Assembly: GCA_035498035.1 (NCBI GenBank)
Contig: DATKAN010000025.1
Coordinates: 17,190 to 81,189 of the forward strand
Length of the DNA stretch: 64,000 bases
Direction: 5' to 3'
DNA from: Nitrospiria bacterium
GTDB lineage: Bacteria; Nitrospirota; Nitrospiria; JACQBZ01
Shown here: positions 5,083 through 22,631 of the stretch, one piece after another
How the letters are laid out: every line of letters begins with the position of its first letter
Numbering within the stretch: the first letter of the stretch is position 1
Translations under genes and position numbers: made by a program
The notes under the pieces: model-generated
The model's input: the letters and a program-made list of their open reading frames with translations, nothing else
Databases searched by the model: none
What the model was told of the DNA's origin: nothing

Positions 5083-5645
5083 GATTTTCTCCTCTGATTG
5101 AAGGATGGTTTTCGTTTCGCGGGTCGGGCGCGTCCTTGAACGGCCCGTTTATAGTCCTGCGCGTACCGGACATAGTTGCTTGCGGCTTTCAGAATATAGT
5201 CGCGTTGTTCGGGACGGATGGGCTGAATGGGCCGGCCGGGAATCCCCGTGACCAGGAAACCGGGAGGGATAACCGTATTTTCGGTCACCACCGCGCCGGC
5301 GCCGATCAGCGCGTTCTCGCCGATGACGGCACCGTTCAAGACGACCGCTCCGATCCCGATCATCGCTCCGTCCTTGACGGTGGCCCCATGCACCATCGCG
5401 CCGTGGCCGATCGTGACGCGGCTTCCGATCACACAGGGAAATCCGTGTCCGACATGAAGAACCGCCCCATCCTGGATGTTGGTCTCTTCCCCCACGCGAA
5501 TGGGGGCGATATCGCCGCGAACCACGGCCGAGAACCAGACGCTGGAGGACTTTCCGATCGAAACGTCGCCCACAACGGTGGCCGTTTCTGCGATGAAGAC
5601 CGAGGGATCGATCTTATTGCGAGACGGGCTGGAGGGGGAAGGCAT
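5079..5645 (-). CDS. Gamma-carbonic-anhydrase / hexapeptide-repeat (LbH) family protein
   Basis: Hexapeptide repeats, gamma-class carbonic anhydrase family (YrdA/PaaY-like); its N-terminus resembles the start at MPSPSS. Confidence 0.7.
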   Translation of the reverse strand: MPSPSSPSRNKIDPSVFIAETATVVGDVSIGKSSSVWFSAVVRGDIAPIRVGEETNIQDGAVLHVGHGFPCVIGSRVTIGHGAMVHGATVKDGAMIGIGAVVLNGAVIGENALIGAGAVVTENTVIPPGFLVTGIPGRPIQPIRPEQRDYILKAASNYVRYAQDYKRAVQGRARPAKRKPSFNQRRKS

Positions 5646-5655
5646 GCAACCTCTC

Positions 5656-6339
5656 TTATCGGACGGTCCGGTAGCACCGTGCCAATCGGGCCGGGGAGAC
5701 GCCCAGATAATAAAGCACCACATAGATCTGGTTGCGCAACGTGGTGTAACCCGCCCCTTCTTTGTCCCACCGTCGGGATGAAGTCACGATCGGTCGGGAC
5801 AGCAACTTGACTTTCCCCAGGCTCTTGAGTCGTCGGGCGAACTCGAGATCCTCCATGATCGGAATTTCAGGATACCCGCCCGACTGTTCAAAGACCGACC
5901 GGCGCACGAAGATTCCCTGGTCCCCGTATGGGATCCCGGTCAGGCGGGTCCGCCAATTGGCCGCCGCCGCCACAAGGCGCAGGATCCTTCGTGGGGAATC
6001 AATCCCCAGACGGAAAGCTCCCCACAAAACGTCGGGATCTTCAAGCGCCCGGATCAGTTCACGAAAAGCGTCATCCGATAAACAAGAATCCGCATGAAGA
6101 AACACAAACACCTCGCCGGCCGCCGCGCGGGCTCCGGCATTCATCTGCCGGCCCCGGCCGGCCTCCGTCAACAGAACCTTATCCGCATACGGTCCGGCCA
6201 ACGCCCGCGTGTCATCCGAACTGTGTCCGTCGACAACGATCCGTTCCAGACCATCCCGTTTCGACAAGGCCGCCATTGTCTTCTCGATGACCGTGGCTTC
6301 ATTGAGCGTCGGGATGATGACGGAGATACGCGGTACCAT
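5656..6339 (-). CDS. Family-2 glycosyltransferase
   Basis: ISVIIPTLNE...DGHSSDDT...ED GT2 signatures. Confidence 0.75.
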   Translation of the reverse strand: MVPRISVIIPTLNEATVIEKTMAALSKRDGLERIVVDGHSSDDTRALAGPYADKVLLTEAGRGRQMNAGARAAAGEVFVFLHADSCLSDDAFRELIRALEDPDVLWGAFRLGIDSPRRILRLVAAAANWRTRLTGIPYGDQGIFVRRSVFEQSGGYPEIPIMEDLEFARRLKSLGKVKLLSRPIVTSSRRWDKEGAGYTTLRNQIYVVLYYLGVSPARLARCYRTVR

Positions 6340-6359
6340 GGCGTTGGCCTCGGGGCGAT

Positions 6360-6575
6360 TTACTTCAGCGCCAGGTAATGTTCCGGATTCTTGTCGAACT
6401 TCTCCTTGCAGCTCTTCGCGCAGAAATAATACGTCGTGCCTTTATAAACGGAATTCCCCGCCGCCTTTTTCTCGTCGATCATCATCCCGCAGACCGGATC
6501 CTTTTCCACGATGGCTCCTTTTCTAATAAGATTAGAACGGATGAATTCATCTTGCTCTTTGTGTGCATCCCGCAT
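6360..6575 (-). CDS. YHS/TRASH-domain metal-binding protein
   Basis: VCGMMIDEK...YYFCAKSCKEKFDKNPEHY. Confidence 0.6.
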   Translation of the reverse strand: MRDAHKEQDEFIRSNLIRKGAIVEKDPVCGMMIDEKKAAGNSVYKGTTYYFCAKSCKEKFDKNPEHYLALK

Positions 6576-6613
6576 CCCGGGAGAAAGTTACACGGATCAG
6601 GGGGAAGACATCC

Positions 6614-7927
6614 TCAAAACTTGTTCAGCACCAACCCCGTCAGCGGCTTGGGATAGAAATAAGTGGATTTCTGCGGCATGCGGTCTCCGACCAGGACCAC
6701 GTCCCGCACCTGTCGGATCTTGGTCGGATTGAGGAAGAAGGCCAGACCGGCCGAACGGCTTTGGACCGCCTTGATCGCCTTCTCTTCGTCTTTGACAAAC
6801 TGGACCTGACCTTCCTTCTTGGCCGCGGGGTCGGTAATCCCCAATGCGCCTTCCAGGATGTTTTTTTGAAAGATCGAAACATCCAACCCCTCCAGAGCCT
6901 TGGAGGTCTTGGGCGCAAACTCCGGTTTCAGCTTCAATAAATGAAAAGAGGGCTCGCTCCCGGCGTACAGGCCGAAGACGGTCGCGGATTGGCCCGCCTT
7001 CGACATCTCCTCGAAAAGTTTTTTCCGAACCCGGGATTCCGTGGTGTTATTGAAGTCCATATGGGTCACGTCAAACGACTGCGCCAACCGATGCTTCAGG
7101 GTTTTTAGATCGCAGGGCAGCGGGTTCAGGATGACTCGGTGAATCGGCAGCAGCGAGATGCCGGCGTCATCCATGTTGGAGCAGAAAATAAAAACGGCCT
7201 CGTACGGTTTTGGCCCCGGGGAGGGATCCTTGGCCCTCATTTCGCCCATGAAGGTCAGGGCCGTCTCATAGCGATGATGGCCGTCCGCAATAAACAGGGG
7301 ATGATCCTTCATGGAGTCGCACAGGGTATCCACCACAGACGGCGTTGAAATCTTCCAGAGCCGGTGGCGGATCTCCTCTTCGCCGACGATATTGATCAGC
7401 GGATGGGCTTCATCGACCGAACGTTCCAACCCGGCGATCCGATCACCGCCCGGGTCGGAATAAAGCATGAAAATGGGACTGGTGTTGGCTTGGCAGGCTC
7501 GCATCAGCCGGAGGCGATCCTGTTTGGCCTTTGGAAAGGTAAACTCGTGCGGAAAAATCTTTCCTTTTCCGATTTCCTCCAGTTGAACCAGAGAAAAGAA
7601 ACCCTTCAGTGTTTTCTTCTCCTGGGTCGGCAAAAGGTAATCGAGTTTGTATAAATACAGGGACGGCTCGGAATCCCTTTCGAGCACTCCCTGTTTAACC
7701 CAATCTTTCAAATACGCCGCGGCCCGGGTGTAGCGGTTGTTTGTCGGACTGTCGTCGGGGTTCTCCTTGCCCAATTCCACCCGAATGATGTTGTACTCGT
7801 GGGCGTGATAATAGCGGTCCTGTGCCGGGCCATCGATGACGTCGTACGGCGGGCAGACCGCCTTGCGAAGATCTTTGACCTTATTGGCATTGAAACGAAG
7901 GCCTTGAAACGGTAAGAGAACAGCCAT
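6614..7927 (-). CDS. DUF1015 family protein
   Basis: N-terminus MAVLLPFQGLRFNANKV and length (437 aa) typical of DUF1015. Confidence 0.6.
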   Translation of the reverse strand: MAVLLPFQGLRFNANKVKDLRKAVCPPYDVIDGPAQDRYYHAHEYNIIRVELGKENPDDSPTNNRYTRAAAYLKDWVKQGVLERDSEPSLYLYKLDYLLPTQEKKTLKGFFSLVQLEEIGKGKIFPHEFTFPKAKQDRLRLMRACQANTSPIFMLYSDPGGDRIAGLERSVDEAHPLINIVGEEEIRHRLWKISTPSVVDTLCDSMKDHPLFIADGHHRYETALTFMGEMRAKDPSPGPKPYEAVFIFCSNMDDAGISLLPIHRVILNPLPCDLKTLKHRLAQSFDVTHMDFNNTTESRVRKKLFEEMSKAGQSATVFGLYAGSEPSFHLLKLKPEFAPKTSKALEGLDVSIFQKNILEGALGITDPAAKKEGQVQFVKDEEKAIKAVQSRSAGLAFFLNPTKIRQVRDVVLVGDRMPQKSTYFYPKPLTGLVLNKF

Positions 7928-9705: not shown

Positions 9706-10749
9706 ATGGAAAACGGGCGACAGGAAATGGCCCTGAAAGGCCGTTGTGTCACTTTCCTGGTGGGTCAGACCGGATTGAATCTGGAGGCCACGGCGATCGT
9801 CGAAAGCCGCGTGCTCAAAAGTTCTCCCAACTATCCCGACGTCATTCCGAAGCAGGCGATCATCCGCACACAAAAGGGCGAGATCCGCGACCGGGAAGCC
9901 ACTTTTGTCGTCAAGGCCTATGTCCCCGACACCGTCATCGTCGAAGCCACGTTCGAGTTTCAGGATCTCGCGGCGGAGCCGCTGTTCGAGCTCAACCGGG
10001 ACCTGCTGCTGGAGAGCCGTCGCTTCCTGAACGAGTTTCAGTGCAACCCGGAATTCGACGAAGAATACAGCGTCTACTGCATTTCGGATTATCAAGGAGA
10101 TCCCGAGATGTTCCTGGCGCTTCACGGCGAAAAGATCGCCGCGTTGCTTAAAAAGGAGCAGATCCTCCTGGACGAGGAAGAAATCAAAGCGACCCTCCGG
10201 TCGAATCTCAAATACGGCAAGGACGATCTGACGGTGGTAGACTGGGACGGGGCCTTCATTTTCGACCCTCATGGAGACTTTGATGCGAATATCGAACTGT
10301 TCGAAATCACCAACCTTCAGCTCTTGAAATCCCGCATGCTGGACGAGGAGCTGGATGGACGGCTGAAAACCACCCTCCAGTTGCTCCGCCGGCGTCCGGA
10401 ACAGTCCTGGCTCCGGTCCAAGCAGGTACGGTCCGTGCTGCGGGAGATCATCCAGACCCGGACCACCTCCATCCTGGAATCCCAGGCGATCGAACACAGC
10501 ATCAAATTGATCGGGGACTGGTACACGGCCCGGCTGTATGCCCTCATCTCGAAAAAATTCCACCTCGAGGAGTGGCGGAAGAATATCAACGAGAAACTGG
10601 ACATCCTCGAAGACGTCTACACCATGGCCGCCGAAAACTTCTCCATTTCATTCAACACCACGCTGGAGTTCATCCTGATCGGCGGCTGGTTCATCCTCCA
10701 AATCGGCTGGTTTGCGCTGCTCTTCATCGAATTCTATCTCGCAAGATAA
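9706..10749 (+). CDS. Hypothetical protein with C-terminal transmembrane anchor
   Basis: Balanced composition. C-terminal hydrophobic helix (LEFILIGGWFILQIGWFALLFIEFYL). No family recognised. Confidence 0.45.
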   Translation: MENGRQEMALKGRCVTFLVGQTGLNLEATAIVESRVLKSSPNYPDVIPKQAIIRTQKGEIRDREATFVVKAYVPDTVIVEATFEFQDLAAEPLFELNRDLLLESRRFLNEFQCNPEFDEEYSVYCISDYQGDPEMFLALHGEKIAALLKKEQILLDEEEIKATLRSNLKYGKDDLTVVDWDGAFIFDPHGDFDANIELFEITNLQLLKSRMLDEELDGRLKTTLQLLRRRPEQSWLRSKQVRSVLREIIQTRTTSILESQAIEHSIKLIGDWYTARLYALISKKFHLEEWRKNINEKLDILEDVYTMAAENFSISFNTTLEFILIGGWFILQIGWFALLFIEFYLAR

Positions 10750-10782
10750 TCCGCCCGGCCTTTTTTCGATTCACAAATCTGC

Positions 10783-10831
10783 TTGACAAACGGGCCGCCG
10801 CTCCTGTATTTTGAGAATCAGAATCAATTTC
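10783..10831 (+). promoter_or_regulatory. Putative sigma70 promoter (TTGACA-18-TATTTT) with overlapping Fur-box-like site upstream of fur
   Basis: TTGACA at 10783-10788, TATTTT at 10807-10812. GAGAATCAGAATCAATTTC (10813-10831) matches the GATAATGATAATCATTATC Fur box at about 13/19 positions. Confidence 0.35.
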
Positions 10832-10853
10832 AACGAACACCCGGGGGTGTGAA

Positions 10854-11330
10854 ATGACCAAGGCACTGCCCTTGAACAAAGAAGTCGCTCGATTAAAAGA
10901 CTACCTGGCCGAGAAGCAACTCAAACTGACTCAACAGCGGGAAACGATCCTGGAAGCCTTTCTCAAGGTGGATCATATCACGGCCGAAGAACTGCATCGT
11001 CAGATCTCCCGGAAGGGACGCCAACGAATGGGCCTGGCCACCATCTACCGGACCTTGAACCTTTTGTGCGAAGTCGGCATCGGACAGCAACGGCACTTTG
11101 ACGATACCCGGACGATTTACGACAATGTGATCAACAAAAAGCACCACGATCACCTGATCTGTGATAAATGCGACAAGATTATCGAGTTTGAATCTCCCGC
11201 CATCGAACGGCTTCAGGAAAAAATGGCCGCCCGGCACGGCTTCACACTCAGCCATCACCGGCTGGAGCTCTTCGGACATTGCATCGATTGGGAAAAGTGT
11301 CGGGATTGGCAGAAGGCGGCCCCCCGTTGA
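10854..11330 (+). CDS. fur: Fur-family metalloregulator
   Basis: Fur DNA-binding helix and HHDHLIC...C..C metal-site motifs. Confidence 0.8.
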   Translation: MTKALPLNKEVARLKDYLAEKQLKLTQQRETILEAFLKVDHITAEELHRQISRKGRQRMGLATIYRTLNLLCEVGIGQQRHFDDTRTIYDNVINKKHHDHLICDKCDKIIEFESPAIERLQEKMAARHGFTLSHHRLELFGHCIDWEKCRDWQKAAPR

Positions 11331-11398
11331 TCATCCCCCAAAAACCCACTGACATGAAACGACGAACCGTTTTTCCCGATACGAACCGGCGAACAAGG

Positions 11399-11737
11399 AT
11401 GAAGAGGGGCGCGGCCTTGCATTTTGGTCTCCTACTCGGGCTCGGGCTATGGCTCCTCGGCACGGCGGACGCGGAGGATGGGATCCGCATTCTCATCAAG
11501 GATCATCGCTTCTCCCCCTCCGAGGTCAGGGTGAAGGCCAATACGAAGGTGAAATTACTCGTGAGCAATGAGGATGAAACCGCCGAGGAATTCGAAAGCT
11601 TCAGTCTCAACCGGGAAAGGGTCGTGCGCGGCGGCCAATCCATCACGATCTTCCTTCCCCCGCTTAAACCGGGCAGCTATGACTTCTTCGGGGACTTCCA
11701 TCCGGACACGGCCCAGGGAAAGGTCATTGCCGAGTAG
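11399..11737 (+). CDS. Secreted cupredoxin-like domain protein (Cupredoxin_1/EfeO-N/FtrB-like, no type-1 Cu ligands)
   Basis: Signal peptide MKRGAALHFGLLLGLGLWLLGTADA. Cupredoxin_1-type strand pattern (IKDHRFSPSEVRVKANTKVKLLVSNED). Immediately upstream of the FTR1 permease. Confidence 0.55.
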   Translation: MKRGAALHFGLLLGLGLWLLGTADAEDGIRILIKDHRFSPSEVRVKANTKVKLLVSNEDETAEEFESFSLNRERVVRGGQSITIFLPPLKPGSYDFFGDFHPDTAQGKVIAE

Positions 11738-11808
11738 AGGCCCGCGTGCAGAGTCTCAGGAAATCTTCCCAGCGAGACCCTATAAATAATAGATAGGAAA
11801 CCCTCGGA

Positions 11809-12630
11809 ATGCTTGGAACGTTTATCATTACATGGAGAGAAACCATCGAGGCCGCCCTGATCGTGGGTATTTTGTTAACCTACCTGAACAAGATCGGCCA
11901 GTCCAAACAGTTTCGCTTTGTGTATTGGGGCGCGCTCTGGGCGGTTTTGGCCAGCCTGATCTTCGCGGGAATGTCCGATTACCTGTCCGTGTTCTTCAAG
12001 GACATCGGCGAGGATATATTTGAAGCGGCCATCCTGTTCCTCGCGACCGGCGTTTTGACTCACATGGTGATCTGGATGCATCACAACGCCCGGGAGATCA
12101 AAGGGGCGCTTCAACACGAGGCGGAACTGGCGATTTCCAAGAACCGGCTGTGGGCCCTGGCCACGTTGGCTTTTGTGGGTGTGTTTCGTGAAGGCATGGA
12201 GACGGTCCTTTTTCTCTGGGGTTTCTTCTTGCAAGGAGGAGGGATAACTTCGGTCGCCCCTCCGGTGATGGGCGGACTTCTGGGGGTCGGGCTCGGCGTC
12301 CTGATGACCTGGCTCTTTTTCAAGGGCTTCGGCCACCTCGACCTGAGACCGTTTTTCCGGGTGAGCGGGTTCATCCTCCTTTTTATGGCGGCCGGCATGC
12401 TCTCCTCGGGAATCGGAAAGCTGGTCTCGGTGGGACTGGTTCCTCCGTTGATGGAACCGATCTGGAACACTTCCTGGTTTTTGAGCGAGCGTTCGCTTTT
12501 GGGGTCTCTGGTCGCGGGTATTTTTGGGTATCGTTCCAGCCCTTCGCTGATCCAGGCCCTCTTCTATCTCTTTTACTTTCCCATCACCCTGATTTGGCTC
12601 CGGCGGCAACGCCACGATCTGGCACAGTAA
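11809..12630 (+). CDS. FTR1/EfeU-family high-affinity iron permease
   Basis: Two REXXE motifs (RETIE, REGME) in TM helices; about 7 TM segments. Confidence 0.8.
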   Translation: MLGTFIITWRETIEAALIVGILLTYLNKIGQSKQFRFVYWGALWAVLASLIFAGMSDYLSVFFKDIGEDIFEAAILFLATGVLTHMVIWMHHNAREIKGALQHEAELAISKNRLWALATLAFVGVFREGMETVLFLWGFFLQGGGITSVAPPVMGGLLGVGLGVLMTWLFFKGFGHLDLRPFFRVSGFILLFMAAGMLSSGIGKLVSVGLVPPLMEPIWNTSWFLSERSLLGSLVAGIFGYRSSPSLIQALFYLFYFPITLIWLRRQRHDLAQ

Positions 12631-12638
12631 GGATGGAC

Positions 12639-12833
12639 ATGGAAACCAACGGGAAACACAAAGCGGCCTCGGATCAACCGAACTCACATGAAGTTCGGTG
12701 CGAATGCGGCAGTCTGGTCGCAAAGCTGGTGGGCTCCGCGATCGAACTTAAATGCAGGCGCTGTAAACGACTGGCGCTGATCCCGCTGTCTAATTTCAAT
12801 GGAGGATCGAAAACAGTAACGGTTCGACTGTAA
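12639..12833 (+). CDS. Com-like zinc-finger small protein (Mu Com family)
   Basis: VRCECGSLVAKLVGSAIELKCRRCKRLALIP parallels the Mu Com RCxxC...IEIRCPRCKR zinc finger. SD AAGGA 6 nt upstream. Confidence 0.5.
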   Translation: METNGKHKAASDQPNSHEVRCECGSLVAKLVGSAIELKCRRCKRLALIPLSNFNGGSKTVTVRL

Positions 12834-12865
12834 TCCCCGGAAGCGGCCAGCGGTTTCAACCCAGA

Positions 12866-12911
12866 GCCCACGTCCATGTCACGCCGAAGGACGCGGGCTT
12901 TTTTATTTTGG
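12866..12911 (+). terminator. Rho-independent terminator candidate after the Com-like gene
   Basis: Stem CCCACGTCC/GGACGCGGG (one mismatch) followed by CTTTTTTTATTTT. Confidence 0.45.
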
Positions 12912-13023
12912 ATTGACACCGTTTATTTAAGCGTAAACGATCAAGAACCACCTACGGCCCGAGGTCAATCGAGAACCCAGAGCCCCAACCACCCCGAAGA
13001 CGGGGCTCATAAGGAGGTTTTCG

Positions 13024-14202
13024 ATGAAACAACGATTGATTCTTCTTTCGATGGTGGTTTGTCTGGGTGTGGGTCTCGGCCGGGATGAAATGGCCGCGGC
13101 CGAATCCGAAGAAGGCACAAAGATCAGTTTTTACGGCTACGGCGAAATGCACTACAACAGCCCGTTTGTGAATTCAGACCGCGGAGGGTTTCCATCGACG
13201 GATGACCGGACAACCATGGACTTCCATCGGTTGGTTCTCGGCTGGGGCGTGCCGTTCAACGACCGGATCCGATTTCAGGGTGAGGTGGAATGGGAACACG
13301 CCGGGCAGGAAATAGAACTGGAGTTCGGCTACCTGGAGTTCGACCTGACCCCCGGACTCCAGGCTCGAGTGGGCAGCCTACTCATGCCGGTCGGGGATCT
13401 CAACGAGTTTCATGAACCCACGCAGTTCTACAGTGTCGAGCGTCCGTATGTTCAGCGTTTCCTGATTCCAACCACTTGGCAGGAAGGCGGCGCGGGGCTG
13501 GTCGGCAGCCTGTCCTCTGGACTCAACGCGCGGGTTTACTATGTGACGGGGTTGGACGCGAGTCAATTCAGTGCCAATAACGGACTCGGCGAGATCGTCC
13601 CGTTGTCCGAGGATCTAAAAGGGGCGGATCAGATGGCGGTCGTGGGCCGGATCGAATATGTCGGGCTGCCCGGGATTCAAGTGGGAGGTTCTTACTATAC
13701 CGGAGGGGCAAGCCAGCGAACCGAGAACTCCTGCATCGCGCCGTGCTCCTCGGTCGTGCCGAAAGGCGTCGCCGTGTCCCTTTGGGATCTGGACCTTCAT
13801 GCCCGCCGTGGGCCTTTCGAGGCGCGCGGAACCTACATCATGACCCATGTCAGCGGAACCGAGGACCTTTCGACCGCGCTGGATCAAACCATTGGAGAGG
13901 AGATGACCGGCGGAATGGCCGAGATCGCCCTTCACACCTTGCCCCTCCTCCTTCCGGGCACCGAACAGGACCTCGTCTTATTCGGTCGGATCGAGCATTT
14001 TAACACCCAGGCCAAGGTTGCGGGCGGGGCCGCGGCCGCGACCGGCCCGGCCGATGAGGCCAACGACCGCCGGGTGATCACCTACGGCATCACCTACTTT
14101 CCCCACCGAGATGTCGCGCTGAAGATCGACCAGGAGCGCTGGCGCGATGGGGCCGATCAAACCGGGCATCGCACAAACCTAGGGATGGCGTTCATGTTCT
14201 AA
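13024..14202 (+). CDS. Outer-membrane beta-barrel porin (OprO/P-like pattern)
   Basis: Signal peptide, alternating beta-strand composition, C-terminal Phe (...MAFMF). AAGGAGG SD. Confidence 0.6.
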   Translation: MKQRLILLSMVVCLGVGLGRDEMAAAESEEGTKISFYGYGEMHYNSPFVNSDRGGFPSTDDRTTMDFHRLVLGWGVPFNDRIRFQGEVEWEHAGQEIELEFGYLEFDLTPGLQARVGSLLMPVGDLNEFHEPTQFYSVERPYVQRFLIPTTWQEGGAGLVGSLSSGLNARVYYVTGLDASQFSANNGLGEIVPLSEDLKGADQMAVVGRIEYVGLPGIQVGGSYYTGGASQRTENSCIAPCSSVVPKGVAVSLWDLDLHARRGPFEARGTYIMTHVSGTEDLSTALDQTIGEEMTGGMAEIALHTLPLLLPGTEQDLVLFGRIEHFNTQAKVAGGAAAATGPADEANDRRVITYGITYFPHRDVALKIDQERWRDGADQTGHRTNLGMAFMF

Positions 14203-14204
14203 CG

Positions 14205-15716
14205 ATGCTGCAATTGAAACGGATTCATATGGGAACCCCTTGGGAGATCAGGGCCCATGGAACTCCCCCCGATGAGCGTCGGGCGGTCGAGGCGGCCGAT
14301 CAGGAGATCGAGAGGGTTGAATCGCTCCTGTCCCGCTTCCGACCCGGCAGCGAAATCTCCCGGATCAACCGCTGCAACGGCCCGTGCAGAATAAGGATCA
14401 ATCCCGAGGTCGGCCGGGTCATCGCCGAGGCGTTGCGGTATGCCGTCTTGACGGAAGGGGCCTTCGATCCGACGGCCGGAGCGCTGAGCCGGCTGTGGGG
14501 ATTCGGACCGGAAGGGCCGCGTACGGTTCCGCCCGACGAGGAACGGATTCAGGCGACGATCGAGCGTCTCGGTTATCGGCAGGTCTGTATCGACGAAGTC
14601 CGTTTTGAATTGACTCTCCGTCGACCCGGGATGGAAATCGACCTGGGCGGGATGGGAAAAGGTTATGCGGTGGACCGGGCCGTCGCCGTCCTGAAAGAAA
14701 ACGGGATCAACCGTGCATGGGTCAGCTGCGGGAGCACGGCCTTTGCCTTGGGCCCTTCAAAACATCACGATGCCTGGAGGGTCGGAATCCGGGATCCGAG
14801 CGGTTCCGGCAGGATCATCCAGACCGTTCAAATACGTGATCGGGCCATTGCAACCTCCGGGGCCTATGAACAGTTCTTCAACTACGAAGGAAGACGGTAC
14901 GGCCACATCTGCGATCCGCGCACAGGCTACCCTGCAGCCGGATCGGCCGGCGTCACCGTGATCGCGCCCACGGCGACCGAGGCCGACGCGTTATCAACGG
15001 CCGCTTTTGTCTTGGGAGCCCGATCCGGAAGGGCCCTGCTGGATTTGCAGGAGGAAGTAGAAGCCTGCTTCTTTGAAGTCCGGGCCGGGAGCTTTTCGAT
15101 TAAGACCACCCGGAATTGGAAACGGGTTTGCTCGGGAGGATTGAACCGGCGACGGTTTCTCGTCGGCTTGATGGCCGCGGCGGGACTTCTGGTTCTGAAA
15201 CCGCCCGCCGTGTCCGGAACGGTCTACCTGACGGACGAAGAAGCCCTTCGCCTGATGATGCCGGAAGGCCGGGAGTTTAAGAAGGAAACGGTGACCCTCA
15301 CCGATCCACAGGCGGCCGAAATCAGCCAGCGGCTGGAAAAACGGATCGAGGAGAATGTTTACACGTTCTATCGAGGGACCGGTTCGGATTCCGCGGTGAC
15401 GATCGGGTACGCGGTCGTCCTCAACGTCATCGGAAAGGAGAGGCCGATCACCTTCATGGTCGGGGTCGATCCTCAAGGCCGGCTCATCGGGATCGAGGTC
15501 CTGACCTACCGTGAATCGCGCGGCTCGGAGATCCGGTCCAAACGTTTCATCAATCAATTTATCGGAAAGACCCTGGACGCGCCTTTGAAGCTGGGCCGGG
15601 ACATTGACGGCATCAGCGGCGCGACTCTTTCCTCCCGCTCCACGGCCTACGCGGTGAAAAAAGCCCTGGCCCTCGCTCACGTTGTTTATGGCATCCACGC
15701 GGAGAGTTCCCCATGA
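14205..15716 (+). CDS. ApbE-family FAD:protein FMN transferase fused via a Tat-like internal anchor to a C-terminal FMN-binding domain
   Basis: ApbE motifs GGMGKGYAVD and HICDPRTG. Then NRRRFLVGLMAAAGLLVL. Then an FMN_bind domain with the flavinylation motif DGISGATLSS. Single continuous ORF. Confidence 0.75.
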   Translation: MLQLKRIHMGTPWEIRAHGTPPDERRAVEAADQEIERVESLLSRFRPGSEISRINRCNGPCRIRINPEVGRVIAEALRYAVLTEGAFDPTAGALSRLWGFGPEGPRTVPPDEERIQATIERLGYRQVCIDEVRFELTLRRPGMEIDLGGMGKGYAVDRAVAVLKENGINRAWVSCGSTAFALGPSKHHDAWRVGIRDPSGSGRIIQTVQIRDRAIATSGAYEQFFNYEGRRYGHICDPRTGYPAAGSAGVTVIAPTATEADALSTAAFVLGARSGRALLDLQEEVEACFFEVRAGSFSIKTTRNWKRVCSGGLNRRRFLVGLMAAAGLLVLKPPAVSGTVYLTDEEALRLMMPEGREFKKETVTLTDPQAAEISQRLEKRIEENVYTFYRGTGSDSAVTIGYAVVLNVIGKERPITFMVGVDPQGRLIGIEVLTYRESRGSEIRSKRFINQFIGKTLDAPLKLGRDIDGISGATLSSRSTAYAVKKALALAHVVYGIHAESSP

Positions 15717-16210
15717 AGGATTTCAGCAAAAAGGGATTCCGGATCGCGAACAGTTCTCCGGAGATCAAAATCATCTATACCGGATTTCTGATCTTCGCGT
15801 TCATCGGCTATTTTACGATTGCGTTGCTTGGATGTCTCCGGGTCGGGCCGAATTACAACGCCATCGTGTCCCATTACCGGGGCTCCGACCTCGATGAAGA
15901 GGCCTTCGGCCAGCCCATCGGCCAGATGTTGGAAGACGCCCATTCTCACGCCTTTATCGAGGGACTGATCCTGCTGGTCCTGACGCATCTGTTCATCGGC
16001 GCCGCCGTCCCGAAACGATGGAAGTTCGCCGTGGTCCTGCTGGCCTTCGGCAGCACGCTGGCCGATCTGGCCAGCCCCTGGCTGATCAAATATGTCGCCC
16101 CCGGTTTTGCCCATCTTCAGATGGCCAGCTGGGCCGGCATGGAAACGAGCGCGCTGCTTCTGATCGGGTGGCCGCTGTATGAAATGTGGTTCAAAGGAGA
16201 AGGAGAATGA
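15713..16210 (+). CDS. 4-TM integral membrane protein, His-rich (uncharacterised)
   Basis: Four hydrophobic helices with several conserved-looking His (SHAFIEG, THLFIG, FAHLQ). ATGA overlaps on both sides (operonic). Confidence 0.5.
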   Translation: MKDFSKKGFRIANSSPEIKIIYTGFLIFAFIGYFTIALLGCLRVGPNYNAIVSHYRGSDLDEEAFGQPIGQMLEDAHSHAFIEGLILLVLTHLFIGAAVPKRWKFAVVLLAFGSTLADLASPWLIKYVAPGFAHLQMASWAGMETSALLLIGWPLYEMWFKGEGE

Positions 16211-16632
16211 AGCGAATCGGATGGATCTGGGTCGCGGGACTGATTCTGATCGGGGCCGGGCCGGCATGGCCGGACGCGAAAAAATCCGACGGAGACCTCC
16301 GGCGAATCACGGTCCGGCTTCAGGAATATCATTTCGAACCGGCCGAGATCCGGCTGAAGGTCGGCGAGGAGGTTGAGCTCACCCTGATCAATGACGGAAC
16401 GGTCATGCACGAGTTTATTACCGAGGCGCTGCAGACGCTGACCGTGGATGTGGAAAACAACGGGATTATCACCGGCACGCTCGGCGTGACCGAGCTTGAG
16501 ATTCCTCCCAAGGCCCGCGCCGTGCTTCGTTTTACCCCGGAGAAACCGGGAGAGTTTTCTATCGCCTGCCATGCCAAAGCACCGAAGGATCACTATCAAG
16601 AAGGAATGAGAGGGCGTCTTCAGATCCGGTGA
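16207..16632 (+). CDS. Periplasmic type-1 copper cupredoxin (Cupredoxin_1 family)
   Basis: Signal/anchor MKRIGWIWVAGLILIGAGPAWP. Ligand set H (VMHEF), C-H (IACHAK), M (EGM). Confidence 0.65.
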   Translation: MKRIGWIWVAGLILIGAGPAWPDAKKSDGDLRRITVRLQEYHFEPAEIRLKVGEEVELTLINDGTVMHEFITEALQTLTVDVENNGIITGTLGVTELEIPPKARAVLRFTPEKPGEFSIACHAKAPKDHYQEGMRGRLQIR

Positions 16633-16723
16633 GCTTCGATCCAGTCTTGGAGAATTTTTGCGAAGATTGACAAACGGACTGAAGTTTGCCAATGTAGCGC
16701 GAATCTGTTCATTGGGACCCCGG

Positions 16724-17137
16724 ATGAAATCGTTCTTGAAAAAATTGGCGGCCGTTGTGCTCGCATTGGGGTGGGCACTGCTCGGATCAGGTTTGGCCCA
16801 GCAACCCTGGCAAACGGTCGAGATTAAGGCGGAAGAGTACAGCTTTACTCCCCGTCGGATTGAGGCCAAGGCGAATCGACCCCTCGAACTGGTGATCGAG
16901 AACGAAGGCCACGAACCTCATCAGTTCCGGTCCGAGCTTCTCAAGGATCAGATGGTCGAGGTCGAAATCGGTCAAAACACGGTCCGGGGCCGCAATATCG
17001 AGGTGGTCGACGTCGCCCCCGGCAAGACGGCCCGGATCAAACTCCTTTCCCCGCCCGCGGGAGAGTTTGACTTCCAGTGCCGCATTCCCAGTCATCATGG
17101 AATGGACGGGATGATCCTGATCGAGGCTGATCCATAA
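16724..17137 (+). CDS. Periplasmic type-1 copper cupredoxin (Cupredoxin_1 family), paralog
   Basis: Signal peptide MKSFLKKLAAVVLALGWALLGSGLA. Ligands H (GHEPHQF), C (FQCRIP), HH, M (GMDGM). Confidence 0.65.
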   Translation: MKSFLKKLAAVVLALGWALLGSGLAQQPWQTVEIKAEEYSFTPRRIEAKANRPLELVIENEGHEPHQFRSELLKDQMVEVEIGQNTVRGRNIEVVDVAPGKTARIKLLSPPAGEFDFQCRIPSHHGMDGMILIEADP

Positions 17138-17231
17138 ATAAACCAGCTCGCAAAGCGTGCGGGATGGGGAGGCTCCATCCGGCTTTGCCGATGGAGGGGG
17201 CGACGCGAGCCCCTATGAAAGGAGAGACCGG

Positions 17232-18008
17232 ATGTTCAGAATGAAGCTTGGCCTCATCCTGGCCGTATGGCTCGTCTTGGCGTTCTCGACCCAAACCCAT
17301 GCGATCGAATTCAAAGTTTATTTCTATTCAACGCCGGGCGAAGGAGAGACGGAGCTCGCCTATTGGTGGACTTATACCGCCAAATCGGAACATTCCTACG
17401 ATTACTTCGGGGAGCTCTTGGACAAACAGGGCCTTCAACAGCATTCGCTGGAGGTCGAATACGGACTGACGGACCACTGGACCATCGGGGGTTACGCCGA
17501 TTTTCAACAACCGAAAGACGGGGATTTCAGATACGTCCAGGCGCGGGCGGTCGTTTCGCGGTATCGCTTTTTTGAGCAGGGCGAGCGCTTTCTCGACGGG
17601 GCGATCGAAGTCGAGTACAACCTTCCCCGCGAGAAGTACAGCGCAAACGAAGAGCTCGAGGCACGGGTTATTCTTGAAAAAGACCTGGGCCAATTCTCCA
17701 TCGTGGTCAATCCAATATTTGAAAAAGACGTCAGCGGACCCGAGGTCGACCAAGGGATGGAATTCCAGTACGCCACGGGTCTGTACTACAGGGCGTCTCC
17801 CCGCCTGACGCCTGGCGTCGAATTCTACGGCGATATGGGTCCGTTGGGCCATCTGGACCCCAAAAGCCAGCAGCAGCATTATATCTTCCCGCGTCTGGGA
17901 CTCAAATTTTCCCGCAGCGTCAATCTGGACATCGGATACGGTTTCGGACTGACCAAGGGCAGCGACGATCAGGTGATCAAAGCCATTTTGGAGTTTGAGT
18001 TCCTATAA
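17232..18008 (+). CDS. Putative outer-membrane beta-barrel protein
   Basis: Signal peptide MFRMKLGLILAVWLVLAFSTQTHA. Alternating aromatic/polar strands. C-terminal ...EFEFL. GGAGAG SD. Confidence 0.5.
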   Translation: MFRMKLGLILAVWLVLAFSTQTHAIEFKVYFYSTPGEGETELAYWWTYTAKSEHSYDYFGELLDKQGLQQHSLEVEYGLTDHWTIGGYADFQQPKDGDFRYVQARAVVSRYRFFEQGERFLDGAIEVEYNLPREKYSANEELEARVILEKDLGQFSIVVNPIFEKDVSGPEVDQGMEFQYATGLYYRASPRLTPGVEFYGDMGPLGHLDPKSQQQHYIFPRLGLKFSRSVNLDIGYGFGLTKGSDDQVIKAILEFEFL

Positions 18009-18013
18009 ATACG

Positions 18014-19195
18014 ATGTCACCGCTCCCCATCCTCGTAATCAAAGCCCATGCCGTTAAGCGATTGAAGACCGGCCATCCCTGGATTTTTTCGAATGAATTG
18101 ACCCGGCTGCCGAAGGAACTGGAACCCGGGCAAGCGGTGGATATCCAAAACCATCGTGGAGAATGGATCGGCCGCGGGTACTTCAACCCCCGATCGCTCA
18201 TCGCGGTCCGGCTCTTGAATCGGGAGCGGACGGAGATCAACGAGGATTTCCTGGAACAAAAAATATCTCAGGCGCAGGCGCTCCGCGGCCAGTGGCTCGG
18301 CGGCGAAGAAGCCTGCCGGGTCGTCTACGGGGAGGCCGACGGCCTCCCGGGCTTGATCATCGACCGATACGGTCCCGTCTGGGTGGTCCAGTTCCTGACC
18401 GCCGGGATGGACCGTTTGACCGAGCCGGTGCTTCGGATCTTGATCAAACGGTTTCGGCCGGCCGCCGTGGTGGCGCGCAACGACACCGCAAGCCGGGCGC
18501 TCGAAGGCCTTGTCCAAGATAAACGGCTTCTCTACGGGGCGCTACCGTCCCCTCTCGTCATACGGAAAAACGACCTTTCGTTTGAGGTGGATGTCTGGGA
18601 AGGGCAGAAGACCGGTTTCTTTCTGGATCAATCCGAGAATTACCGTTGCCTCGATGGGATGGTACGAGGCGCACGCGTGCTGGATGCCTTCTGTTACACC
18701 GGCGCATGGGGACTCCATGCCGCACGGTACGGCGCAGGAGAGGTGATCGGTCTGGACAGTTCGGAAAAGGCCGTCTCTGAGGCTCAGGCCAACGCCCGAC
18801 GAAACGGCCTGGCCTCCGCCAGCACGTATCTTCAAGAGGACGTTTTTGACGGGCTCCGTCGGCTATACAAAGCGAAGAAGCGCTTCGATTGTGTCATCCT
18901 TGATCCGCCGGCCTTCGCCAAAAGCCGTCAAAAAGTCAAGGAAGCCGTGCGTGGATACAAAGAAATCAACCGGCTGGCGATGATGCTGCTGTCGCCGGGC
19001 GGGGTTCTGGTAACCTGTTCCTGTTCGCATTTGATCGGCCAATCCTTGTTTCGAGAGATTCTCGTTTCGGCCGCCGCCGATGCCGAACGATCCTTTTATA
19101 TCACGGCCTGGCGCACCCAGGGCCGGGACCATCCGATCGATCTGGCCATTCCGGAGACGCAATATTTGAAATGCGTTTTCCTTCAAGCCAAATAA
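18014..19195 (+). CDS. rlmI: 23S rRNA m5C1962 methyltransferase RlmI (PUA + SAM MTase)
   Basis: N-terminal PUA-like region. SAM-binding and catalytic motifs (VLDAFCYTGAWG, ILDPPAF). Confidence 0.8.
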   Translation: MSPLPILVIKAHAVKRLKTGHPWIFSNELTRLPKELEPGQAVDIQNHRGEWIGRGYFNPRSLIAVRLLNRERTEINEDFLEQKISQAQALRGQWLGGEEACRVVYGEADGLPGLIIDRYGPVWVVQFLTAGMDRLTEPVLRILIKRFRPAAVVARNDTASRALEGLVQDKRLLYGALPSPLVIRKNDLSFEVDVWEGQKTGFFLDQSENYRCLDGMVRGARVLDAFCYTGAWGLHAARYGAGEVIGLDSSEKAVSEAQANARRNGLASASTYLQEDVFDGLRRLYKAKKRFDCVILDPPAFAKSRQKVKEAVRGYKEINRLAMMLLSPGGVLVTCSCSHLIGQSLFREILVSAAADAERSFYITAWRTQGRDHPIDLAIPETQYLKCVFLQAK

Positions 19196-19205
19196 GCCCG
19201 TCTTC

Positions 19206-20225
19206 CTAGCGATTCGCGGCCGGCGGGGTATGAGGGGATTTTGGCAATCGGGCTTCGGAATGAACAGATCCACCCGGAGTCAAGGTATCAACGAGATGGC
19301 CGATGAGATAAGGGGTCAGAACCATCCCCCGATCTTCCGTCGTCAACTCAAGGCTTCGCAGGAGCGGGGCATAGTTATTTAAGGGAAAATAGAAATAGCC
19401 GAGGGCTGAAGTCAAGGCGAGAAACAACGCCAGCATCAGAAAAACCTTTATCTGAGGAAGGACGCCTCGGGCCAGCCCCTTGATCCGGATCCGATTGATG
19501 GCGTACCCGAACCGGTTGCGCAAGGACTCCTTCTTGACCGGATCCAGACCGACCTTCACCGCATCGTAGAGGCCGATCATCCACATCAAAAAAAAGAGGG
19601 GGGAAATTCCCGCGGCCGCGACGACCATCCACTCGACCGCGATTCGGTCGTCAATCGTCGCCAGCATCGGCCAGATGAAAAAGATTGAAACCGGCGCCGT
19701 CACGGCGGCGAAGCCGGCGGCGGCGAAGATCAGAAAGAAAAAGGCCTTCTTCGGTTGACCGTTGAGAAGCTGCCCCCAACCGGGAAGCAGGAAGGAGCAG
19801 AGCGCAACCAGCATGGGATGTTTGATGCCCTCAAAGGGCCTGGTCCGCTTTTTTTCGGCGCCGTAATAGGCATGGAGAACGTTGAATATCCAAACCATCA
19901 GACCCGTCAGCCAGAAGGCTCCGGTTCCCATCAAGGCATTGGACCGGGTGATATGAAAGGTTTCCAAATAAGGGGCAAGAATAGGCCAGTAGACGATGAC
20001 CAGACACGGGACCCCGTAGAAATTCGCCATCAGGAGAATAAAGAGGAGGCCCCATTTCCATTCCCGGTTGTAAACCTGGCCCGTTCCCCAGACCCAAAGC
20101 GATAGTGTGGCCGCAAGAGCGGGGTTTTTACCCGACTCCGTCGGTCCCGGCACCTTCGCGGGGCTTCCATCTTTTTTATCCGATTTTATTGTCGGGTTTT
20201 CGAGAACCCACACCTTTTCAGGCAT
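19206..20225 (-). CDS. Multi-pass membrane protein with duplicated GxGQ motif (uncharacterised)
   Basis: Repeated WGTGQVYN / PGWGQLLNGQ motifs each followed by TM helices. Confidence 0.5.
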   Translation of the reverse strand: MPEKVWVLENPTIKSDKKDGSPAKVPGPTESGKNPALAATLSLWVWGTGQVYNREWKWGLLFILLMANFYGVPCLVIVYWPILAPYLETFHITRSNALMGTGAFWLTGLMVWIFNVLHAYYGAEKKRTRPFEGIKHPMLVALCSFLLPGWGQLLNGQPKKAFFFLIFAAAGFAAVTAPVSIFFIWPMLATIDDRIAVEWMVVAAAGISPLFFLMWMIGLYDAVKVGLDPVKKESLRNRFGYAINRIRIKGLARGVLPQIKVFLMLALFLALTSALGYFYFPLNNYAPLLRSLELTTEDRGMVLTPYLIGHLVDTLTPGGSVHSEARLPKSPHTPPAANR

Positions 20226-20391
20226 TTCCCAACCTCGGGACGGATTATAAAAAAATATAGCATCCAGGCGCGGACTTGTCTATATTCCAATCCCTTGAAT
20301 TAGCGGATCTAAATTGCATTACCGAGCCCTAAAATGGGATACTTGATCCCTGCCGTGACGCAGGCTAAGAAATTGACCGGGAAGAATCGAA

Positions 20392-20751
20392 ATGACAGGC
20401 CATGAGATCGGATTGTTAAAAGGATATATGTTGGACCTCGTCGAACAGGCCCGACAGGAATCGATGACTTATCAAACGGCCGGATATCAGGAACAACCCT
20501 ACACCCCCGATCAGGCCCTCATGGATCTTCTGGCGATCCTGGACGACCGGCTGGAATCCGAAGGCATCCAGGTCGGACTATCGGAGGAATTCCGGCACCG
20601 GATGTGGGAAATCTGCAAACGGTCGCTCAATTACGTAAAGGAAGAGTCCTGGCTTGAGGCCAACCTCAGCACGAGCCGGCCAAGCAAAGCGGAGGTACGA
20701 TCCATCGCCTATCGCTCGCTGCTGGAATTCATTGAGGGTCACGAAAATTAA
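20392..20751 (+). CDS. Hypothetical protein
   Basis: 119-aa ORF with coding-like composition. No family recognised. Confidence 0.4.
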   Translation: MTGHEIGLLKGYMLDLVEQARQESMTYQTAGYQEQPYTPDQALMDLLAILDDRLESEGIQVGLSEEFRHRMWEICKRSLNYVKEESWLEANLSTSRPSKAEVRSIAYRSLLEFIEGHEN

Positions 20752-22085: not shown

Positions 22086-22631
22086 ACAAAAATGCGCACT
22101 GAAGCGGTTCGTAAGCCGAGTTCTGTGCCCCTTTGGATCGCTCCGCCGGGGTGGCGATCATTTCTCTGGGATCCCGATTACTCGGGACCTCAAGCAACCA
22201 ACCCGTTCCGCCTATTATATTCGGGAGCCCGTGCGGCAAAGAAGGACCGAAGGTCCACCGATGCCCCCGCCCCCCGCGCTCGCGCCGGCGAAGCCGGCCG
22301 CTCGCTTATAATTTCGAACGGGCCGTTCTATGGCCCTCACGGACCAGACGGAACCTATTTGGTCTTGCTCCGGATGGGGTTTGCCGTGCCCCCGTCATCA
22401 CTGACGGGGCGGTGAGCTCTTACCTCGCCGTTTCACCCTTGCCCGTATGCGTCCGAGATGGCTGGAGCTCCCTGCCACCTCTTTCGCACCGTCGGCGGTC
22501 TGTTCTCTGTGGCACTTTCCGTCCCCTCGCGAGGCCTGGGCGTTACCCAGCATCCCGCCCTCTGGAGCTCGGACTTTCCTCACCCCGCGTGCTCGTGCGG
22601 GGCGCGATCACCTGAACCACTTCAGTGCGCA
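22086..22631 (-). ncRNA. rnpB: RNase P RNA (bacterial type A), unusually long (~545 nt)
   Basis: Minus-strand conserved blocks: AGGAAAGTCCGAGCTCC (RC of 22568-22584), GGGTAACGCCCAGG (RC of ~22540), ACAGAACTCGGCTTAC (RC of ~22110). P1 pairing between the 5' GTGCGCACTGAAGTGGTTC and the 3' GAACCGCTTCAGTGCGCA. Confidence 0.75.

Follow-up and report, generated by a model that had tools for sequence, protein, structure and literature searches.

A conserved flavin, porin and cupredoxin module beside an FTR1-type iron permease unit in Nitrospirota, a candidate for periplasmic iron redox chemistry

Results

Ten genes in two units

We analysed a gene cluster at positions 10783-18008 (plus strand) of a 64-kb window, the whole stretch of DNA under study, from an uncultured member of the Nitrospiria (Nitrospirota). 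Ten open reading frames (ORFs), all on the plus strand, were listed in this interval, at the places and in the order given by an original prediction for this DNA. They fall into two units. Unit 1 consists of fur, the FtrB-type cupredoxin gene cupA, a gene for an FTR1/EfeU permease and znf, which encodes a Com-like zinc (Zn) ribbon. Unit 2 consists of a porin-like gene, an ApbE~FMN_bind fusion gene, a gene for a membrane protein with four transmembrane helices (4-TM; PF27139) and the cupredoxin gene cupB; here these are followed by a further cupredoxin gene, cupC, and a second barrel gene. The close packing that had been described was confirmed, with ATGA overlaps at 15713 and 16207 and gaps of 2 nt between the FTR1 gene and znf (12630/12633) and between the porin-like and ApbE genes (14202/14205). 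The likely starts of cupA (11399), cupB (16207), cupC (16724) and the second barrel gene (17232) were reset from gene calls on identical contigs, and signal peptides were found in all five proteins predicted as secreted. Pfam and NCBIfam agreed with the assignments of Fur, the Cys-less Cupredoxin_1 protein, FTR1, ApbE with FMN_bind and two further Cupredoxin_1 proteins. The labels 'porin', 'outer-membrane barrel' and 'Com-like' are provisional, being drawn from signal peptides, C-terminal aromatic residues and Pfam matches below threshold.

Conservation and iron context of unit 2

Loci encoding relatives of the 4-TM protein (numbered with the prefix L) were gathered from species genomes, metagenomes and exact-protein look-ups. 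For their annotation we used the proteins of the window together with a small set of iron proteins as references. For loci of high GC content, in which a naive ORF listing gave spurious ORFs, called genes were used instead. The porin, ApbE/FMN_bind and 4-TM genes occurred together in every locus with enough sequence, about 45 distinct loci. The order of this neighbourhood was invariant (porin-like gene, ApbE/FMN_bind, 4-TM), with cupB next in most Nitrospirota loci. The co-occurrence expected of the gene set was therefore found for unit 2, and not for unit 1, which was joined to it in three lineages only: the fur-cupA-FTR1-znf block stands beside the module in the window, L005 and L037. The idea of a single co-inherited 'island' had to be given up on the same grounds and because a terminator-like hairpin separates the two parts. 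The base composition of the cluster does not differ from that of its flanks, so it is not a compositional island either.

We found that other iron genes often take the place of the FTR1 block. The context contained fur and/or an FbpABC ferric importer in L021, L022, L033, L054, L056 and L065-L067, Bfd, ferritin and znf genes in L013-L015 and L018, and fur alone in L012. Altogether, at least 15 distinct loci have genes for iron uptake or storage next to the module, and these are of three transporter or storage types. In addition, all fetched loci 5 kb or longer (551 kb in total) were scanned for Fur boxes with a scored search. It yielded 34 matches scoring 14/19 or better, compared to 5 in shuffled sequence, and most of them immediately preceded fur or the porin or ApbE gene. 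Sites preceded the module or its operon in 10 loci. Module operons headed by fur with a Fur box were present in the window and in L005, L022, L033 (18/19), L037 and L054; a box lay directly before the first gene of the module in L016 (15/19), L021 (16/19) and L055 (17/19, before the porin gene); and L067 has one of 15/19 before its ApbE~FMN gene. In L016, the box precedes the porin gene despite the two-component system that heads this locus. Since Fur boxes and three kinds of iron neighbours coincide, an iron role is well supported in silico, and there is good, though not universal, in-silico evidence that unit 2 is iron-regulated and iron-related. The proposed relation of the cluster to iron, with blue-copper-type cupredoxins and an FMN_bind protein predicted to be flavinylated co-conserved, thus holds.

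Predicted flavinylation and export of the ApbE~FMN_bind protein

The second gene of unit 2 (14205-15716, plus strand) encodes a 503-aa fusion of an ApbE domain (PF02424, E 2e-85; residues 9-289) with an RnfG-like domain that binds flavin mononucleotide (FMN) (FMN_bind, E 5e-12; residues 410-488). The ApbE motifs are intact (GKGYAVD, TSGAYEQ, HICDPRTG and ADALSTA), and the FMN_bind domain carries the flavinylation motif SGAT (residues 471-474, nt 15615-15626) within DGISGATLS, which is invariant in orthologues. Between the domains lies a twin-arginine segment, NRRRFLVGLMAAAGLLVLKPPAVSG (residues 314-338, nt 15144-15218). The ApbE domain starts within a few residues of the N-terminus, and no hydrophobic signal precedes it in 17 of 17 aligned fusions. 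An RRx[FILVM] motif stands at a fixed distance before the FMN_bind core in all 49 complete sequences of the subfamily (49/49), N-terminal in split genes and internal in fusions, and is followed by a short Gly/Ala-rich hydrophobic stretch, often with a small-x-small site. In the window protein it is accordingly not N-terminal and sits behind a 310-aa domain.

The split-gene relatives (L062, L065, L066, L068, L071 and L072; for example, L065 8395-8982 and 8979-10004) are a natural control, as the unfused counterpart of this fusion. Their FMN_bind proteins begin with a canonical signal for twin-arginine translocation (Tat; MLSRRRFLTS...LSA/QEG), and the adjacent ApbE has no signal peptide. The pairing of a signal-less ApbE with an RR-bearing FMN_bind domain implies that FMN would be attached in the cytoplasm before Tat export, both topology and export route being predicted from sequence. 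In the distant loci L023-L025, all four parts are separate genes, the ApbE has a Sec or lipoprotein signal if an upstream start is used, and the signal of the FMN_bind protein has no clear RR pair. On the simplest reading, canonical periplasmic flavinylation would be ancestral; in one clade ApbE would have become cytoplasmic and its substrate a Tat passenger; and in the clade of the window a fusion of the two would have put the Tat signal inside the chain.

ApbEs without a signal peptide, and ApbEs fused to their substrate, have been described, always with the substrate in the compartment of the ApbE itself (PMC12052999); precedents are the cytoplasmic fumarate reductase of Klebsiella and the ApbE-fumarate reductase fusions of trypanosomatids (PMC12052999), with the Tat-exported NosX as a near comparison. 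Unlike these, the substrate here carries a twin-arginine signal for export, placed after the signal-less ApbE in fusions and on a protein of its own in split genes, and our literature search gave no description of this arrangement. The protein had been called an inner-membrane flavoprotein; its FMN domain stands, and the rest is recast as an ApbE predicted to be cytoplasmic, with a Tat-like anchor that links it to the FMN domain in the periplasm. It had also been taken as the entry point of electrons from the membrane, a part that we transfer to the 4-TM protein as the likelier candidate for the membrane redox partner.

The 4-TM protein

The 4-TM gene (15713-16210, plus strand) overlaps both neighbours by ATGA. 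Its product belongs to Pfam PF27139 (Aq_1264_TM), according to the precomputed Pfam matches, which cover the identical protein and every relative listed. No function has been described for this family, and a literature search found no mention of it. A profile search against 1.84 billion representative proteins, clustered at 50% identity, returned 640 members at E <=1e-3; a second protein search (alignment A1) added only close relatives among the matches listed. In 101 diverse members, H77 and G57 are invariant and H79 occurs in 100, followed by Y55 (84%), H92 (81%) and E74 (77%). The 4-TM architecture originally described is thus right; 'His-rich' is not, with five His residues in all, of which some are invariant. 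The AlphaFold model (pLDDT 89) is a four-helix bundle with a short helix in the first loop, in which E74, H77, F81, G/P84, L88 and H92 share a single face of TM2, the two His residues lying 15 positions apart. From the charge distribution, the N-terminus would be inside and the HxH motif at the periplasmic interface. By analogy, the TM2 pattern could fit two b hemes between a pair of protomers, on the model proposed for FezC, with heme sites formed by homodimerization (PMC11334425); a quinol or metal site on the periplasmic side would fit it equally well.

Two ideas about this protein were set aside. In the distant members P0171 (531 aa) and P0248 (535 aa), an N-terminal Aq_1264_TM domain is fused to a C-terminal ApbE, and we dropped these as evidence for a cytoplasmic ApbE because the roughly 40 aa that link the domains may form a fifth TM helix. 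A role as exporter of flavin adenine dinucleotide (FAD) is unlikely, as the protein is retained and translationally coupled where ApbE is cytoplasmic.

We also searched for c-type hemes. No CXXCH motif was found in the ten cluster proteins or in any window ORF of at least 100 aa, so the description 'lacking cytochromes' applies to c-type motifs and to this window; the 4-TM protein itself could bind heme b. The description does not extend to the relative L037, in which a 560-aa lipoprotein with a di-heme CCP_MauG domain and two CXXCH motifs (5469-7151) is encoded between the fur-cupA-FTR1-znf block and the porin module; L037 has no cupC.

Cupredoxins and outer-membrane barrels

The cupB gene (16207-16632, plus strand) encodes a secreted cupredoxin of the type-1 copper (Cu) kind (Cupredoxin_1, E 2e-10) with ligands H68, C121, H129 and M134 in the 141-aa form, invariant in 15 orthologues; the C-x7-H-x4-M loop has the same spacing as the type-1 Cu loop of Geobacillus NirK in the alignment. 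The cupC gene (16724-17137, plus strand) encodes a second one (Cupredoxin_1, E 3e-15; Copper-bind, E 1.5e-3), with H66, C119, H124/H125 and M127/M130 kept in four aligned orthologues. The ligands assigned originally therefore survive proper alignment. Lineage-specific and otherwise confined to the closest relatives, cupC was also found in L027 and L050. Both products match the N-terminal part of CopI models (E 1e-9 for cupB and 8e-9 for cupC), far below the cut-off.

Two FbpABC-type loci have small, weakly cupredoxin-like ORFs upstream of the porin or ApbE genes: one in L021 (7013-7465; SoxE E 0.15) and one in L054 (about 6653-6985; tblastn identity to cupC 36%). Where the cupredoxin stands within the module may thus be variable. 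In L019, the 4-TM gene is followed directly, in the place that cupB has in other loci, by a Mu-like prophage (11794-20510) with genes for Gam, GemA, Mor and a Mu transposase C-terminal domain.

The conserved module opens with a gene (13024-14202, plus strand) for a porin-like outer-membrane beta-barrel protein of 392 aa, with a signal peptide, the C-terminus ...MAFMF and no Pfam family; its homologues gave weak matches only, to OMP_b-brl, BBP2, Porin_O_P or Porin_4. It adjoins the flavoprotein gene even in distant lineages (33% identity). A profile of 14 homologues searched against PDB sequences gave nothing useful (best match an invasin, E 0.31). The second predicted barrel (17232-18008, plus strand; 258 aa) has a signal peptide and a Phenol_MetA_deg match below the cut-off (E 7e-4); it is lineage-specific, occurring in the closest relatives and L037 (L005, L006 and L037). 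Among the invariant columns of the 14-sequence porin alignment there is no Cys, and the barrels have no CXXCH. With neither conserved Cys nor heme motifs in the barrels, the 'complete electron path across the envelope' once proposed is unfounded, and we read the barrels as diffusion channels.

Unit 1, a reduced FTR1 and FtrB-type pair

Unit 1 opens with a sigma-70-like promoter (10783-10812, plus strand; TTGACA, 18-nt spacer, TATTTT; 10/12), the best promoter-like match within 10600-18300. Directly after the -10 hexamer lies a Fur-box-like site, GAGAATCAGAATCAATTTC (10813-10831, plus strand), that matches GATAATGATAATCATTATC at 14/19, and a second site overlaps it in a 6-nt register (10807-10825, 13/19). 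These sites came from the scored scan; an exact-consensus search with up to 3 mismatches returned no Fur box. The position upstream of fur is kept in relatives (L005 15/19; L037 16/19), in line with the predicted site in the promoter of fur itself. The fur product (10854-11330, plus strand; 158 aa) is a Fur-family regulator (PF01475, E 6e-34) whose best NCBIfam models are Fur, all below equivalog cut-offs.

The cupA gene (11399-11737, plus strand) encodes a secreted FtrB/EfeO-N-type (Cup-II) cupredoxin without Cys (Cupredoxin_1, E 2e-28; signal peptide). Its closest solved structure is FtrB of Brucella abortus (8VUK, E 1.4e-11), a ferroxidase in vitro that binds an Fe(II) mimic by E84, E86, E93 and D119 and Cu by D118 and H121 (PMC11966278). 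The alignment agreed with the predicted FtrB likeness: equivalents of E84, E86, E93, D119 and H121 are kept, so the Fe-binding residues are retained, and one Cu-binding Asp is missing, D118 being replaced by Gly as in FtrB 'Cluster III' (PMC11966278). The permease (11809-12630, plus strand; 273 aa) belongs to the FTR1/EfeU family (PF03239, E 1e-45) and scores 211 bits with the NCBIfam EfeU equivalog model (cut-off 255). Its two REXXE motifs, which had been predicted, were located as RETIE (residue 10) and REGME (residue 127).

In its Fur-controlled FTR1 permease with two REXXE motifs and its Cup-II cupredoxin with the Fe-binding Glu/Asp residues and His121 of FtrB, unit 1 resembles FtrABCD and EfeUOB, ferrous-iron oxidase-permease systems of which FtrABCD is known from Brucella, Bordetella and Burkholderia. 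Unlike these systems, it lacks the D118 equivalent, and in place of their other parts there is a module of flavin, 4-TM and type-1 Cu proteins with two outer-membrane barrels. P19/FtrA (PF10634) gave no match at E <=0.1 in the ten cluster proteins; no Fer4-type match or Cys-rich membrane protein was found in the cluster for the polyferredoxin FtrD; and for EfeO and EfeB, neither the M75 domain nor a DyP peroxidase was matched in the cluster, only the Cup-like domain of EfeO. Unit 1 is thus not a complete FtrABCD or EfeUOB system and is probably a reduced oxidase-permease pair of that type, predicted to work alike.

A Com-like gene and a conserved element between the units

The last gene of unit 1, znf (12633-12833, plus strand), encodes a 66-aa Com-like Zn-ribbon protein (CxC ... 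CxxC; ELKCRRCKR) with a sub-threshold match to Zn_ribbon_Com (PF10122; 13.8 bits against a cut-off of 22.9, E 0.042). Its four Cys residues are conserved across seven aligned orthologues, and it is kept in 11 loci despite differing upstream genes. Between znf and the porin gene lies a conserved non-coding element, AAGCGGCCAGCGGTTTCAACCCAGAGCCC (12842-12871, plus strand), with a second ACCCAGAGCCC copy at 12975-12985. The element (consensus RGCGGCCAGMGGTY-N(4-26)-ACCCAGMGCCC) is present at this position in 11 of 11 znf-containing loci (the window, L005, L013-L015, L018, L021, L033, L037, L054 and L056) and was not found upstream of the porin gene in loci without znf. Rfam gave no match in the cluster, the element included, and RNAalifold on the element showed weak structure and no informative covariation.

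In five loci, the 3' half of the element is the 5' arm of a terminator-like hairpin. In the window, this hairpin with its U-tract separates units 1 and 2 (12863-12909, plus strand; -21.3 kcal/mol, z -2.3), and a possible TTGACA lies downstream of znf. Equivalent hairpins in L005, L033, L037 and L021 have different, self-complementary stems, from which we conclude that the units are probably separate, or attenuated, transcription units.

The znf product resembles Com, the translational activator of phage Mu: both are small Zn ribbons of the CxxC...CxxC type with a very similar 'E(I/L)(R/K)C(P/R)RCKR' knuckle, and znf lies just upstream of a conserved element and hairpin, which stand before the gene that would be regulated. 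Unlike Mu Com, znf has a sub-threshold match, a first knuckle of CxC and a chromosomal, iron-related context, and RNA binding is suggested by analogy. The element may be the binding site of the Com-like protein, for antitermination or translational activation.

Discussion

A proposed periplasmic iron redox module

We computed gene content, co-conservation, Fur-box sites, the conservation of ligands and motifs, and the pairing of a signal-less ApbE with the RR motif. With confidence modestly above even, we read the cluster as two iron-acquisition units side by side, of which unit 2 would be a periplasmic iron redox device that serves a nearby importer. What we add by inference is topology, the Tat route of export, the identity of the 4-TM cofactor, which way electrons flow and what the substrate is. 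The signal-less ApbE domain would act in the cytoplasm and place FMN on Thr474 in the FMN_bind domain at the C-terminus of the same chain, and the internal twin-arginine segment would direct the folded holo-domain through Tat, to be anchored afterwards or cleaved. The 4-TM protein would link the periplasmic flavin to the membrane electron pool, through a homodimer with His-ligated heme b or a quinol site. Flavin and type-1 Cu cupredoxins would then alter the redox state of iron that enters via the dedicated porin, and the co-located importer (FTR1/FtrB here, FbpABC elsewhere) would take it up. The direction that we prefer is reductive mobilization, with electrons passing from the membrane through FMN to Fe(III), and with the cupredoxins acting in a re-oxidation step at the permease, which would make the cluster a c-cytochrome-free counterpart of fungal Fre/Fet3/Ftr1. 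By that analogy, reductive and oxidative steps may coexist, as in fungal reductive iron assimilation.

Published work on related genes is consistent with such a direction. The flavinylated proteins studied so far donate electrons to extracytosolic acceptors, several are linked to iron assimilation, and FMN_bind genes occur in 260 P19/FTR1 clusters (PMC8238504). In Bifidobacterium breve, mutants in bfeUO, in the FMN-binding sifE and in apbE grew poorly under iron chelation (PMC5449479).

Several observations weigh against this reading. The FTR1 unit occurs with the module in 3 of about 30 informative loci, with a hairpin between them, so that the two may be only loosely coupled in this genome. 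In about 10 loci, the module has no iron genes and is headed by a NarL-type regulator and a histidine kinase with dCache, HAMP and PAS domains (two-component-system loci L007-L011, L016, L019, L029, L034 and L035), where fur is replaced and znf is absent; L024 and L025 adjoin TetR and P450 genes and have no iron genes; and some contexts have genes for other metals (HMA, NikR, ZnuA). A Tat signal inside the chain, behind a domain of 310 aa, is unusual. Both FTR1 and FbpABC presumably transport Fe(III) that is formed or bound in the periplasm, and this suits an oxidizing role no less well than a reducing one. Type-1 Cu potentials are usually well above those of flavins, which leaves the place of the cupredoxins in a reductive chain less certain.

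The more detailed combination of these elements, a hitherto unrecognized way of making periplasmic flavoproteins, we offer as a tentative proposal that is less likely than not. In it, a signal-less ApbE, free or fused, would flavinylate its partner in the cytoplasm as a built-in maturation and proofreading domain before Tat export; together with Aq_1264_TM as a new family of membrane redox partner (possibly a homodimer with two b hemes), the porin and blue-copper proteins, this would amount to a c-cytochrome-free, fungal-type reductive iron assimilation, controlled by Fur and a Com-like RNA-binding switch.

Alternative explanations

The iron redox device could also run the other way, as an electron sink for oxidative uptake, which we hold to be possible but not probable. 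Electrons would pass from Fe(II) on the FtrB-like protein through the cupredoxins, FMN and the 4-TM protein to the membrane pool; within this same reading, the module would stand in for the polyferredoxin FtrD, the peroxidase EfeB or the Fet3 cluster that reduces O2. Members of the FTR1 family act as oxidase-permeases, and FtrB is a ferroxidase in vitro (PMC11966278). FtrA, FtrD and EfeB are absent from the cluster, and the cupA product, without a D118 equivalent, may depend on Cu proteins other than itself. Fe(III) is what the co-located FbpABC importers bind, and the di-heme CCP_MauG protein between the units in L037 would parallel EfeB, since bacterial cytochrome c peroxidases take electrons from cupredoxins. 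Set against these points, electron flow from type-1 Cu to FMN is normally uphill, and the core module also occurs without a cupredoxin (L019, L021 with a weak SoxE-like ORF only, L022, L023-L025 and the split-gene loci), so the cupredoxins are not essential to it. The outward donation of electrons by the flavinylated proteins studied (PMC8238504) argues in the same direction, for the reductive reading.

A different substrate, with the module as a general periplasmic metal reductase or a copper-handling device (a Cu(II) reductase or CopI-like detoxification), is unlikely in our view. The CopI-like matches of cupB and cupC, far below the cut-off as they are, would fit it, as would the nearby HMA, ABC-3, NikR and ZnuA genes in L016, the Metal_resist protein and RND/MacB efflux genes upstream in L018 and the many loci headed by a two-component system instead of Fur. 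But the Fur boxes of L016, L021, L055 and L067 lie directly before porin or ApbE genes, the recurrent neighbours are three different kinds of iron genes, module versions without a cupredoxin exist, and Pfam and NCBIfam identified no Cu efflux or chaperone gene in the cluster.

That two independent and functionally unrelated operons lie together by chance is improbable. The terminator-like hairpin and possible TTGACA after znf, and the highly varied neighbours of unit 2, are what such a juxtaposition would give. It leaves aside the iron-uptake or storage genes, of three types, beside the module in at least 15 distinct loci, the recurrence of Fur boxes at module loci, and the bridge that znf and its downstream element form between iron genes and the porin gene in 11 loci.

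Very improbable is a trans-envelope conduit that would serve dissimilatory or extracellular metal redox and in which flavin and copper would replace the hemes of porin-cytochrome or Cyc2 systems: a barrel gene always comes first in the module, a second one follows the cupredoxin genes in this lineage, and rusticyanin-type Fe(II) oxidation does couple an outer-membrane protein with a cupredoxin, but no c-type heme motif was found on or in the barrels, which have neither CXXCH nor an invariant Cys nor a fused cupredoxin or flavin domain, no cluster component is able to span a barrel, and Fur control with adjoining importers indicates assimilation and not respiration.

Relation to known systems and significance

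A link between an FTR1-type permease and an ApbE-flavinylated FMN_bind protein has been described in the P19/FTR1 clusters of Méheust et al. (2021) (PMC8238504) and, with genetic evidence, in bfeUO-sifABCDE with apbE of B. breve (PMC5449479), so the general idea of coupling FTR1 to flavinylation is not new. These systems share with ours the proposed role, redox chemistry that aids iron assimilation. They differ in being mostly Gram-positive, with P19, FtsX-type ABC parts and an extracytosolic ApbE; compared to the published FMN_bind clusters, the cluster here has no P19, has a signal-less ApbE fused via a Tat-like segment, and adds a porin, Aq_1264_TM and cupredoxins. An RnfG-like FMN_bind domain with [ST]GA[ST], beside an ApbE and a small membrane protein with conserved His residues, also recalls the RNF/NQR (RnfG/NqrC), NapH-like, MsrQ-like, PepSY-like, DUF4405/FezC and Listeria FmnB/PplA/EetAB flavinylation systems. 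Of RNF/NQR, only the RnfG-like domain was matched in the cluster (E about 1e-11, below cut-offs), with no other subunits. With fungal reductive iron assimilation (Fre, Fet3, Ftr1), the cluster shares the logic of a flavin-dependent membrane reductase, one or more blue-copper proteins of the cupredoxin fold and an FTR1 permease; the reductase is non-homologous and the cupredoxins are single-domain proteins without a trinuclear Cu cluster, which makes the likeness one of analogy.

The claim that the combination as a whole is novel stands, since the literature search gave no description of it. What the literature searched does not describe is this specific module, in which a porin of its own, a PF27139 partner and blue-copper proteins are joined by an ApbE, signal-less or fused, that has a twin-arginine substrate, and by the Com-like gene with its element. 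FTR1-family permeases need a redox partner whose identity has been settled for few bacterial systems, and the module is a concrete candidate for it, which also accompanies FbpABC importers. Furthermore, our reading offers a testable role for the uncharacterized membrane family PF27139. It also suggests that ApbE flavinylation is possible before export, which bears on how FAD reaches periplasmic ApbE: if true, cytoplasmic flavinylation followed by Tat export would remove the need for periplasmic FAD, and would widen the range of Tat substrates and signal architectures. The carriers are Nitrospirota of soil and groundwater, habitats in which nitrogen cycling may be limited by the supply of iron.

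Neighbouring genes in the window

A gene for an RlmI-like PUA/SAM methyltransferase (18014-19195) begins 5 nt past the last barrel gene. It is a conserved downstream neighbour in several relatives (L004, L005, L037 and L043) and marks the 3' boundary of the cluster. ARAGORN found no tRNA gene in the 64-kb window. A complete bacterial class A RNase P RNA gene, an ordinary housekeeping gene, lies further downstream on the minus strand (22097-22623, 261 bits).

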